Below are positions 62,577 through 63,994 of a stretch of DNA of 64,000 nucleotides, one piece after another. Source of the DNA: Escherichia phage ECML-123-2; sequence record OL631480, one strand, 5' to 3'. The position numbers and the translations under genes were made by a program. The notes under the pieces were generated by a model. That model had not been told where the DNA came from. It saw nothing but the letters and a program-made list of their open reading frames with translations, and did not search any database. Every line of letters starts with the position of its first letter. Position 1 is the stretch's first letter.

Positions 62577-62606
62577 CAAAAAGCCCCAACCTTTTGGTCG
62601 GGGCTA
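62577..62606 (-). terminator. rho-independent terminator after the internal-protein-like gene
   Basis: minus agccccgaccAAAAggttggggct followed by ttttgg. Confidence 0.6.
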
Positions 62607-62612
62607 AGAATG

Positions 62613-63086
62613 TTATTTGATTTGTTTAGCAGACCAAATGCGGTCTTTAATAATTTTTTGGATGTCTTCAACATACTCAAGAGAGTGAACATGTGGGTTA
62701 TCTTTGAAACTATAAGCACGAGCTAGCTTTTGGCCTTCAGTTTTGATTACTAAAAGCTCTTTAAGGATAGCTTCATATTTGGAGATAATTCCTTTAACAA
62801 TATTTTTCTCTTGTGTGACTTTAGGATCTGCTTTAGGAGCAGGTTTACCTGAAGCCTTTGCAAAAGCAGCTCCAGTAGCAACTAAACTTTTCCAAGCCAT
62901 ACTAACTGCATTCCCTGTAAATCCTTCGGCTTTCATATCACGAGCAAATTGGAATCGTGATTCATCGGAAGCATCTTTATAGGAATATTTACCCGCGGCA
63001 ATGGCAGCTTTTGCAACAGCTTGAATTTCAGTGCTAGATGCTTCATTTAACACCGCTTCATTTAAAAATTGAGTATATGATTTCAT
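62613..63086 (-). CDS. internal-protein-like protein with capsid targeting sequence
   Basis: 157 aa from ATG at 63086; N-terminus MKSYTQFLNEAVLNEA resembles T4 internal-protein CTS (MKTYQEFIAEA, cleavage after L-x-E). Confidence 0.55.
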   Translation of the reverse strand: MKSYTQFLNEAVLNEASSTEIQAVAKAAIAAGKYSYKDASDESRFQFARDMKAEGFTGNAVSMAWKSLVATGAAFAKASGKPAPKADPKVTQEKNIVKGIISKYEAILKELLVIKTEGQKLARAYSFKDNPHVHSLEYVEDIQKIIKDRIWSAKQIK

Positions 63087-63130
63087 CTTATTTCCTGTTT
63101 TAATTTGTAGATTTAATATACTAATATTTA

Positions 63131-63162
63131 TACCAAAAAGCCCCAACCTTTCGGTCGGGGCT
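63131..63162 (-). terminator. second copy of the same terminator hairpin, upstream of the internal-protein-like gene
   Basis: agccccaacctttcggtcggggct, near-identical to 62581..62604. Confidence 0.55.
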
Positions 63163-63164
63163 AA

Positions 63165-63469
63165 GCCTTGCGGCAACCTTGTCGGGGTTCCACCTGCTAA
63201 GGCAAGTGTTTGTACGAAACGCCGGGATTCGAACCCGGTTATTAAGTAGTTGACGCTACTCAATATTTTTAAAAGGCCATATCTCGACCATATCCGAACG
63301 TTCCGTCAAAAACGCTACTCGGCTTACGGCAAAGATATTTCCTCGAATCGATAATTCGGTGCGCCGTTTCTGCTGTGATAGTAAAGAGCCAGAACACAGT
63401 AAAACTGTGGGAGGAAACTATACTCCAGGGAACATCAGTCCGACGACTTACCGGTAGCGACCCGGTTTC
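63165..63469 (-). ncRNA. structured non-coding RNA region next to the tRNA genes (possible T4 stable RNA C/D-like)
   Basis: about 300 bp without a credible ORF; minus-strand tRNA-like T-arm ccgggTTCGAATcccgg; GC content above neighbours. Confidence 0.4.
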
Positions 63470-63820
63470 TTAATATTCTTTTAAAGAATCAATATATTCA
63501 CGGCGTTTACGCCACAAATCAATTGCTTCATACGCGGATTCAGCATTTCGAATTAGCCGGCATTTATGTAAAGACTTATGATTTTGATATTGTGTAGATA
63601 ACGGAATTGTATCTAAAAGGTCTTTACGATCAAAATATTCGTAACCATCTAAACCAAATGAACGATTTTTGAGAAATTGCCAATGACCATATTCGTTTTC
63701 GACATAAACATAATCTGCATGCTGATAAAGCAAATTAATTACACGTTCAGAAATAACAGTATCATTATGATTAAAATAGAATGTTAAATCATGAACTACT
63801 AAATAAACATTACCTTTCAT
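63470..63820 (-). CDS. hypothetical protein within the tRNA region
   Basis: 116-aa ORF. Confidence 0.5.
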   Translation of the reverse strand: MKGNVYLVVHDLTFYFNHNDTVISERVINLLYQHADYVYVENEYGHWQFLKNRSFGLDGYEYFDRKDLLDTIPLSTQYQNHKSLHKCRLIRNAESAYEAIDLWRKRREYIDSLKEY

Positions 63821-63838: not shown

Positions 63839-63914
63839 TGGTCGAGGCAGTAGGGATCGAACCTACGACCTAGGACTTAGAAGGTCCTTGCTCTTCCTTC
63901 TGAGCTATGCCCCG
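63839..63914 (-). tRNA. tRNA-Arg (anticodon TCT)
   Basis: 76 nt cloverleaf folded by hand: 7-bp acceptor stem, D/anticodon/T stems all pair, anticodon loop CUUCUAA, T-loop TTCGATC, encoded CCA. Confidence 0.85.
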
Positions 63915-63918
63915 TAAT

Positions 63919-63994
63919 TGGGGTGACCGATGGGAGTCGAACCCATGACTACGAGAATCACAATCTCGAGTTCTACCAACTGAACTACGGCCAC
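63919..63994 (-). tRNA. tRNA-His (anticodon GTG)
   Basis: 76 nt cloverleaf; anticodon loop UUGUGAU, C73 discriminator, ends ...CACCCCA like bacterial tRNA-His; encoded CCA. Confidence 0.75.

Follow-up and report, generated by a model that had tools for sequence, protein, structure and literature searches.

The 64,000-nucleotide (nt) stretch of Escherichia phage ECML-123-2 DNA analysed here (sequence record OL631480; hereafter the window) carries on its minus strand, in and just beyond the interval 63165–63469, what we identify with high confidence as the orthologues of the two stable RNAs of phage T4, rnaD (species 2) and rnaC (species 1), with rnaC adopting the architecture of a four-way junction. 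The rnaC/rnaD element is already known and ordinary for a T-even phage, and the source genome is a T2/T4-like Tequatrovirus. The two RNAs are textbook T4 biology, and their function is a long-standing gap. The structure model described below makes this gap more testable by providing several handles, namely a four-way junction with a tRNA-like core, a conserved tandem U·U, an invariant U-N-C-A tail, complementary loops, and a placement like that of a tRNA gene within the tRNA clusters of at least ten genera. We found no published covariation-based structure of rnaC in the available literature, and Rfam 15 has no family for it; a curated RNA family would be justified.

The identification rests on homology and gene order. 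Used as a query, 63120–63480 matches Escherichia phage EC.W14-2 at 100% identity and both T2 and Yersinia phage fPS-65 at 99%, and a blastn search against 50,697 phage records gave matches in 808 of them, 679 with a query coverage of 80% or more. Two T4-species genomes, RB59 and RB7, have the matching DNA annotated as the non-coding RNAs rnaD ("species II RNA") and rnaC, and the layout in RB59 is tRNA-Arg (1422–1496), rnaD (1498–1615), and rnaC (1622–1760), followed by gene e.8. When the window, RB59, and T2 are aligned, collinearity extends from rnaD across rnaC as far as the terminator, with a mean column identity of 93%. The ends of the two RNAs were set by transferring the RB59 coordinates, which gives rnaD at 63358–63473(−) and the equivalent of the annotated T4 rnaC gene at 63213–63351(−). 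A covariance model built from 30 rnaC homologues scores 162 bits (E = 1e-36) at 63208–63351(−) and detects no second rnaC copy in the window. Compared with T4 rnaC (~140 nt), the window version has the same length and the same position after rnaD and before the terminator, and is nearly identical over the full length, differing by a few point changes. Compared with T4 rnaD (~118 nt), the 5′ ~55 nt and 3′ ~30 nt are orthologous and in the same order, whereas in the centre a hairpin of unrelated sequence stands in for ~45 nt, as it does in T2. The minus-strand order is rnaD, a 6-nt spacer, rnaC, a conserved hairpin, and the intrinsic operon terminator, which places rnaC at the distal end of the tRNA operon, as in T4; a spacer of the same AAUUA type also separates the CCA of the upstream tRNA from rnaC in Karamvirus-like phages. 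In T4, both RNAs accumulate late as discrete species, seen by RNA-seq and confirmed by Northern blotting in a 2022 omics study that calls their functions yet unknown (PMC9697503). As far as the work of Broida and Abelson is summarized in PMC2330249, the primary T4 tRNA transcript includes both stable RNAs and ends after species 1.

The flagged interval is clearly non-random. It had been described from its letters as free of credible open reading frames (ORFs), and indeed the longest ORF lying mostly inside it in a six-frame check has 42 amino acids (aa); a 216-aa entry in the ORF list merely extends the frame of the neighbouring gene upstream to a TTG start, and homologues of the interval vary by 1–2-nt indels and paired compensatory changes, not by codon-like changes. 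The raised G+C content noted at the same time is confirmed (0.44–0.49 over 63100–63450 versus 0.28–0.37 in the flanking genes), the minus-strand T-arm is present and perfect, and the whole interval folds with z = −5.2 relative to dinucleotide shuffles. The original prediction was also right that no canonical tRNA fold is present: ARAGORN makes no call in the interval and an Rfam search returned nothing at gathering thresholds. At E ≤ 10 the Rfam matches in the interval are at chance level (sau-63, isrK, anti-hemB, tRNA-Sec, and T-arm fragments), the best sub-threshold match of the tRNA clan being tRNA-Sec with 17 bits against a cut-off of 47, and the tRNA family itself (RF00005) matches neither at the gathering threshold nor at E ≤ 10. 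ARAGORN likewise finds no tmRNA in the interval, and the Rfam trace of one is a 17-nt T-arm match to permuted tmRNA with 10 bits. The location of the structured RNA stands, with shifted bounds: by homology, the RNA block starts at 63473, so that its first 4 nt overlap the end of the 116-aa ORF at the stop codon, and on the 3′ side it runs past 63165 into the terminator at 63139–63162. The proposal had left open whether the region is a counterpart of the T4 stable RNAs or a degenerate tRNA; homology and gene order establish the former and not the latter, as the T-arm is part of rnaC's own covariation-supported fold. The names used, "species C and D", mix two sets of terms, since the RNAs are species 1 and 2 and the genes are rnaC and rnaD.

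The comparison of homologues establishes rnaC as a conserved structured RNA of 139–142 nt with a tRNA-like core (Table 1). The minimum-free-energy fold of the window rnaC is a four-way junction (−50.2 kcal/mol, z = −4.6 relative to dinucleotide shuffles), and RNAalifold recovers this junction from 25 rnaC sequences. Homologues were gathered by pattern scans of IMG/VR and by rounds of BLAST in which the Karamvirus and Marfavirus versions served as seeds. When the U·U columns are left out of the 25-sequence alignment, 98.5% of the cells are paired, compared to 33–46% with the partners slid; compensatory changes occur in 17 of 34 pairs, and none of 500 shuffles reaches the observed scores. Extending the set to 30 distinct homologues and including the U·U columns gives 92.9% paired cells versus 35–46% with slid partners, and compensatory changes in 19 of 36 pairs, values that again no shuffle out of 500 reaches. 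The 7-bp acceptor-like stem consists of five Watson-Crick pairs and a tandem U·U. At its third pair, 11 sequences have A-U and 18 have G-C, and the tandem U·U becomes U-A/U-A in phage PM2, so that the U·U positions evidently face each other in the helix. The middle pair of the T-stem also varies (G-C, U-A, or A-U). The long arm occurs as two unrelated sequence types among the homologues, both of which keep the closing AGG/CCU, the apical 5-bp stem (all five pairs covary), and the loop. Despite these two types, 26 distinct versions measured through C140 all fall within the 139–142-nt range.

Table 1. Features of the rnaD/rnaC region and its surroundings in the window, listed in minus-strand order.
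Feature	Position	Strand	Basis or remark
tRNA-His(GUG)	63919–63994	−	next to tRNA-Arg
tRNA-Arg(UCU)	63839–63914	−	next to tRNA-His
116-aa ORF	63470–63820	−	PHROG 3355, function unknown, no Pfam match; stop overlaps first 4 nt of rnaD
rnaD homologue (T4 species 2 RNA), 116 nt	63358–63473	−	aligns with RB59 rnaD
rnaD 5′ hairpin ACCGG-GUCGCUA-CCGGU, 5-bp stem, 7-nt loop	63450–63466	−	RNAalifold
rnaD variable central hairpin	63381–63427	−	alignment: segment replaced, flanks invariant; window has T2 type, not T4
Spacer GAAUUA between rnaD and rnaC	63352–63357	−	alignment
rnaC homologue (T4 species 1 RNA), including U-A-C-A tail	63211–63351	−	end-to-end alignment with RB59 rnaC
rnaC acceptor-like stem, 5′ strand CGAUUCG	63344–63350	−	pairs with 63215–63221
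rnaC long arm, ~70 nt, in D-arm position	63274–63343	−	starts directly after acceptor-like stem
Long-arm apical loop UUGACG	63304–63309	−	fold and alignment
A-rich junction strand UUUAAAAA	63266–63273	−	AAAAU core nearly invariant in 30 homologues
rnaC 10-bp hairpin	63240–63265	−	9 of 10 stem pairs show compensatory changes
Loop of 10-bp hairpin, CGUCAA	63250–63255	−	complementary to long-arm loop
rnaC T-arm CCGGG-UUCGAAU-CCCGG	63222–63238	−	runs directly into 3′ acceptor strand
rnaC acceptor-like stem, 3′ strand CGUUUCG	63215–63221	−	pairs with 63344–63350
rnaC tail U-A-C-A, unpaired	63211–63214	−	after acceptor-like stem
Conserved 3′ hairpin CACUUGC-CUUA-GCAGGUG	63191–63208	−	Tequatro-, Mosig-, Dhaka-, and Gaprivervirus
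Intrinsic terminator of tRNA/stable-RNA operon	63134–63162	−	stem-loop 63139–63162: 10-bp stem, GAAA loop, U run
158-aa gene	62613–63089	−	PHROG 2280, function unknown, no Pfam match

The apical loops of the long arm and of the 10-bp hairpin are exact complements of each other in both long-arm types. The pair is UUGACG/CGUCAA in 24 sequences and UUGGCG/CGCCAA in five Marfavirus-like sequences, and the PM2 loops keep a GACG/CGUC core. The loop–loop pairs are Watson-Crick in 29 of 30 sequences and include one double change from A-U to G-C. Holding both loops open has a computed cost of 0.2 kcal/mol, and the matched loop duplexes come to −5.5 and −7.6 kcal/mol, compared with −0.4 and −4.9 kcal/mol for the two mixed combinations. 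These patterns suggest, rather than prove, that the loops form a kissing contact, either within one molecule or between two. The DNA of the long-arm loop, TTGACG, was also considered as a −35 promoter box and rejected, as no conserved −10 box follows and as the loop changes together with the other loop in the Marfavirus-type sequences.

The resemblance of rnaC to a canonical tRNA (RF00005) is concentrated at one end of the molecule. The 7-bp acceptor-type stem is contiguous with the 5-bp stem of a T-arm bearing the 7-nt loop UUCGAAU, and both helices are supported by covariation. An unpaired U stands at the discriminator position and is followed by NCA. All 30 homologues encode this tail, U-[A/C]-C-A, where a tRNA has N73-C74-C75-A76; it reads UACA in 24 of them, the window among these, and UCCA in the other six, with C75 and A76 invariant. 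The gene also occupies a tRNA-cluster site with tRNA-like spacers. Unlike a canonical tRNA, rnaC has a tandem U·U in the acceptor stem, a length of 140 nt, and, in the window, an ACA tail, and it stays below the ARAGORN and Rfam thresholds. It has neither a D-arm nor an anticodon arm with a 7-nt loop, but instead the ~70-nt arm and a 10-bp hairpin with a 6-nt loop. Lacking an anticodon arm, it cannot decode. The rnaC covariance model weakly matches a genuine tRNA-Asn in phage JS10 (20 bits).

In some phages, ARAGORN does call a 94–96-nt "tRNA" inside the rnaC homologue, and in some relatives it misreads the A-rich junction strand as the "anticodon". The anticodons reported for homologous rnaC sequences are of three different kinds (UUU, CAU, and GAA). 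The alternative tRNA-like fold behind the tRNA-Lys, tRNA-Met, and tRNA-Phe calls of ARAGORN, as well as behind the tRNA-Sec match, uses an internal ACGGAACG as the 5′ acceptor strand. We rejected this fold, as its pairing is broken in Karamvirus-type sequences and its anticodon differs between homologues, and for the same reasons we regard the tRNA annotations of rnaC as artefacts. In public records, the 3′ two-thirds of rnaC are annotated as a tRNA in Escherichia phage 55 (L004, 1371–1464), SonariX (L009, 647–741), and EnA02 (L005, 1547–1642), as well as in G9062 and PG7; across such records and ARAGORN output the labels are tRNA-Lys, tRNA-Met, tRNA-Phe, and "tRNA-OTHER". Coding sequences for a "hypothetical protein" are placed over rnaC and rnaD in many other records. 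The comparative rnaC model explains the recurrent mis-annotation of the locus in both of these ways.

The 30 distinct rnaC homologues come from at least ten genera of Tevenvirinae. They were found in Tequatro-, Mosig-, Gapriver-, Karam-, Kanagawa-, Marfa-, Gelderland-, Winkler-, and Mosugukvirus and in several unclassified Straboviridae. The spacers around rnaC are 5–8 nt long in Karamvirus, Gelderlandvirus, and Erwinia phage COW86c, where the gene stands exactly between tRNA-Trp and tRNA-Gly; in PM2 and LC53, tRNA-Trp follows shortly after rnaC. Within these clusters, rnaC is placed just as a tRNA gene would be. Two IMG/VR pattern scans, returning 109 and 33 stretches, contained about 20 true rnaC matches, the rest being chance matches in GC-rich contigs, and a metagenome scan gave 13 matches, all of types already seen. 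Two actinobacterial matches from a scan of bacterial genomes were rejected, since the covariance model gives them no support. As the scans add no distant rnaC, the family looks confined to enterobacterial Tevenvirinae at this sensitivity.

For rnaD, we compared 13 distinct versions from Tequatro-, Mosig-, Dhaka-, and Gaprivervirus, which hardly vary over the first ~55 nt at the 5′ end and the last ~30 nt at the 3′ end. The versions share a closing stem, CGUCG/CGGCG, and invariant internal-loop sequences, and the closing pair of the 5′ hairpin is A-U in nine variants and G-C in three. Because the sequences are so close, the covariation support is modest, and rnaD alone folds no better than its shuffles (z = −0.2). 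We tentatively read rnaD as a separate long irregular hairpin whose invariant internal loops would form a protein- or RNA-binding site. Karamvirus-type clusters have rnaC without rnaD, JS10 has rnaD without rnaC, and VR26 retains only the last bases of rnaD; the two RNAs are thus separable modules. In a 2025 experimental-evolution study of a T4-like phage adapted to E. coli ECOR34, all lines acquired one convergent single-nucleotide polymorphism (SNP), which lies inside rnaD (PMC12685909). The recurrence of this change on a host that is semi-permissive is a hint that the role may be host-specific and perhaps related to defence. Viewed by eye, the rnaD 5′ hairpin with its lead-in (AA-ACCGG-GUCGCUA-CCGGU) resembles the rnaC T-arm with its own (AA-CCGGG-UUCGAAU-CCCGG). 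The 3′ end of T4 rnaD reads GCGCACCA-AAUUA, like a tRNA 3′ end followed by the usual cluster spacer. By the same visual judgement, rnaD may descend from rearranged pieces of a tRNA or of rnaC.

On the basis of the tRNA-gene-like placement and the published T4 transcript map, we propose that rnaC and rnaD would be cut from a read-through transcript of the tRNA operon by the enzymes with which the host processes its tRNAs. The 5′ cut, where the acceptor-like stem of rnaC begins, would be made by RNase P, and the 3′ side would be trimmed back by exonucleases and possibly repaired to CCA. A kissing interaction of the two loops would lock the extra arms. Several RNAs carry an acceptor/T-arm mimic on other helices and thereby engage tRNA-binding proteins without decoding, including the tRNA-like domain of tmRNA, the YrlA/Y-RNA module, and viral tRNA-like structures. 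It is possible, although we hold the idea tentatively, that rnaC similarly shows its acceptor/T-arm surface to a tRNA-binding protein of the host or the phage and acts as a decoy, sponge, or scaffold. The likeness to these systems is limited: rnaC has neither the tag ORF nor the pseudoknot series of tmRNA and is not called as a tmRNA by ARAGORN, its Rfam matches to the tmRNA and Y-RNA families are absent or negligible, and it lacks G3·U70. E. coli K-12 is not known to have the Ro protein that YrlA binds.

A more elaborate proposal, which we consider rather doubtful, is that rnaC is a purpose-built tRNA mimic, with its imperfect tandem-U·U stem, its NCA/CCA end, and its kissing-loop-held arms, that would bind a host tRNA-recognizing factor late in infection as a decoy or sponge, with rnaD as a second effector or trigger. 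The partner may then be a defence toxin that modifies the acceptor end of tRNAs or cleaves them, RNase P, the CCA-adding enzyme, or EF-Tu. As a decoy, rnaC may protect the real tRNAs, and as a sponge, it may redirect the factor; the sequence of rnaD may matter on hosts like ECOR34. There are precedents for structured non-coding RNAs of phages that neutralize or trigger defence systems, among them the pseudo-ToxI antitoxin mimic and the cabRNA that activates CBASS (the cyclic oligonucleotide-based antiphage signalling system). Neither rnaC nor rnaD resembles these RNAs in sequence or structure, and the link is purely conceptual, but a defence-acting phage RNA would fit the convergent SNP in rnaD on a semi-permissive host. 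If rnaC is indeed such a mimic, then these stable RNAs, whose function has been a puzzle for 50 years, would turn out to be RNA-based factors for counter-defence or for takeover of the host.

A number of observations weigh against our overall interpretation of rnaC and rnaD. Most homologues encode ACA rather than CCA. The T-loop is UGCAUGC in Kanagawavirus IME523 (L008) and UGCAUCC in Winklervirus LC53 (L127), both of which keep the T-stem, so a canonical T-loop is dispensable in some lineages. The basis of the kissing loop is perfect complementarity plus a single independent double substitution, the five Marfavirus-like sequences that carry this substitution are closely related, and PM2 weakens two of the six loop–loop pairs. 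Deletions that take out the tRNA region leave T4 viable on laboratory strains. The 5′ end of rnaD cannot arise here as it does in T4, where rnaD begins 2 nt after tRNA-Arg, because the 116-aa ORF intervenes. Discrete accumulation of the stable RNAs has been seen in T4 itself and is predicted for ECML-123-2. A full-text literature search covering reviews and omics papers up to 2025 found no functional study, partner, phenotype, or target of rnaC or rnaD, and these papers call the function unknown (including PMC9697503 and PMC12685909).

Other explanations of the region fare worse. That it encodes one or more small proteins is hardly credible: ORFs of 24–42 aa are present in the interval, but none is conserved, no ribosome-binding site is evident, and the homologues tolerate 1–2-nt indels and wholesale replacement of the long arm and of the rnaD centre while keeping the RNA pairing. 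We also consider it very unlikely that the RNAs are decayed tRNA genes, that is, functionless pseudogenes. A perfect T-arm joined to an acceptor-like stem is what such a gene might leave behind, and the 94–96-nt ARAGORN calls and the GenBank labels tRNA-Lys, tRNA-Met, and tRNA-OTHER point the same way. However, the called anticodons disagree among homologous sequences, the pairing of the 3′ acceptor strand with the internal ACGGAACG fails in Karamvirus-type sequences, and covariation, with compensatory changes in more than half of the rnaC pairs (19 of 36), backs a different fold of fixed length over at least ten genera. The conserved fold and the fixed length imply selection for rnaC as it stands, and both RNAs are abundant and discrete in T4 (PMC9697503).

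A role in cis, in which the block is a 3′ operon end that protects against exonucleases or guides processing or termination rather than acting in trans, would suit the Tequatrovirus arrangement, where the block closes the operon on its 3′ side and the terminator comes directly afterwards, and the persistence of the 3′ hairpin and terminator in JS10 and VR26, which lack rnaC. It is nevertheless distinctly improbable, because tRNA genes flank or follow rnaC in Karamvirus, Gelderlandvirus, Winklervirus, and Mosugukvirus, because its conserved loops and tail exceed the needs of a protective hairpin, and because the T4 RNAs accumulate late as separate stable species (PMC9697503). Finally, rnaC and/or rnaD could be regulatory RNAs that base-pair with host or phage mRNAs. 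"Small regulatory RNAs" is the term used in the recent literature, long invariant stretches of rnaD are unpaired in the consensus fold, and the convergent rnaD change in the T4-like phage evolved on ECOR34 (PMC12685909) could be read in this way. Against this, no target was found in the literature, and a search of E. coli genomes, which is insensitive to short seeds, gave neither similar sequences nor antisense matches. In addition, rnaC is almost wholly base-paired internally, and neither RNA has its own terminator and U tail, as is usual in Hfq-dependent small RNAs, the only terminator lying ~50 nt downstream of rnaC. We therefore regard base-pairing regulation as improbable.

Downstream of rnaC, the conserved 3′ hairpin and the terminator are also features of phages without rnaC, as noted for JS10 and VR26, and Mosigvirus shows one compensatory change from G-C to A-U in this hairpin. 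In many relatives (L004, L006, L007, L051, and L092), the 5′ strand of the terminator is CCCCUUCC, which places a tandem U·U opposite GGUUGGGG; a tandem U·U thus marks both these variant terminators and the rnaC acceptor-like stem. An invariant CCCCGAC further upstream (~63180–63186, within GGAACCCCGACAAGG; region 63176–63186) could pair with the same terminator 3′ strand, and this pairing may represent an alternative terminator helix. In the window, the operon terminator is duplicated (62582–62605 and 63139–63162) on both sides of the 158-aa gene. This gene had been called internal-protein-like, a description that its sole match, PHROG 2280, does not bear out. It has its own T4 late-promoter motif, TATAAATA, at 63125–63132, directly after the first terminator copy, and the sequence that follows the single terminator in T4 and T2 (GGTATCTAGGCCTTTCC...) stands after the second copy here. 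This arrangement, shared with Yersinia phage fPS-65, suggests that recombination at the terminator brought in the 158-aa gene as a cassette.

On the upstream side, rnaD does not directly follow tRNA-Arg. The order tRNA-Arg, 116-aa ORF, RNA block is the same in T2, where the ORF is gp136, and in fPS-65; in T4 this position is empty, and the homing endonuclease gene segB lies ahead of tRNA-Arg instead. Gene exchange has a hotspot in the tRNA region. A 10-bp hairpin, AUUUGUGGCG-UAAA-CGCCGUGAAU, at 63496–63519(−) falls within the 3′-terminal part of the 116-aa ORF, ~25 nt upstream of rnaD; a scan flagged it as terminator-like, but its U run is poor. The tRNA-His gene next to tRNA-Arg has no equivalent in the RB59 cluster and is present in fPS-65, and the cluster continues beyond the end of the window.

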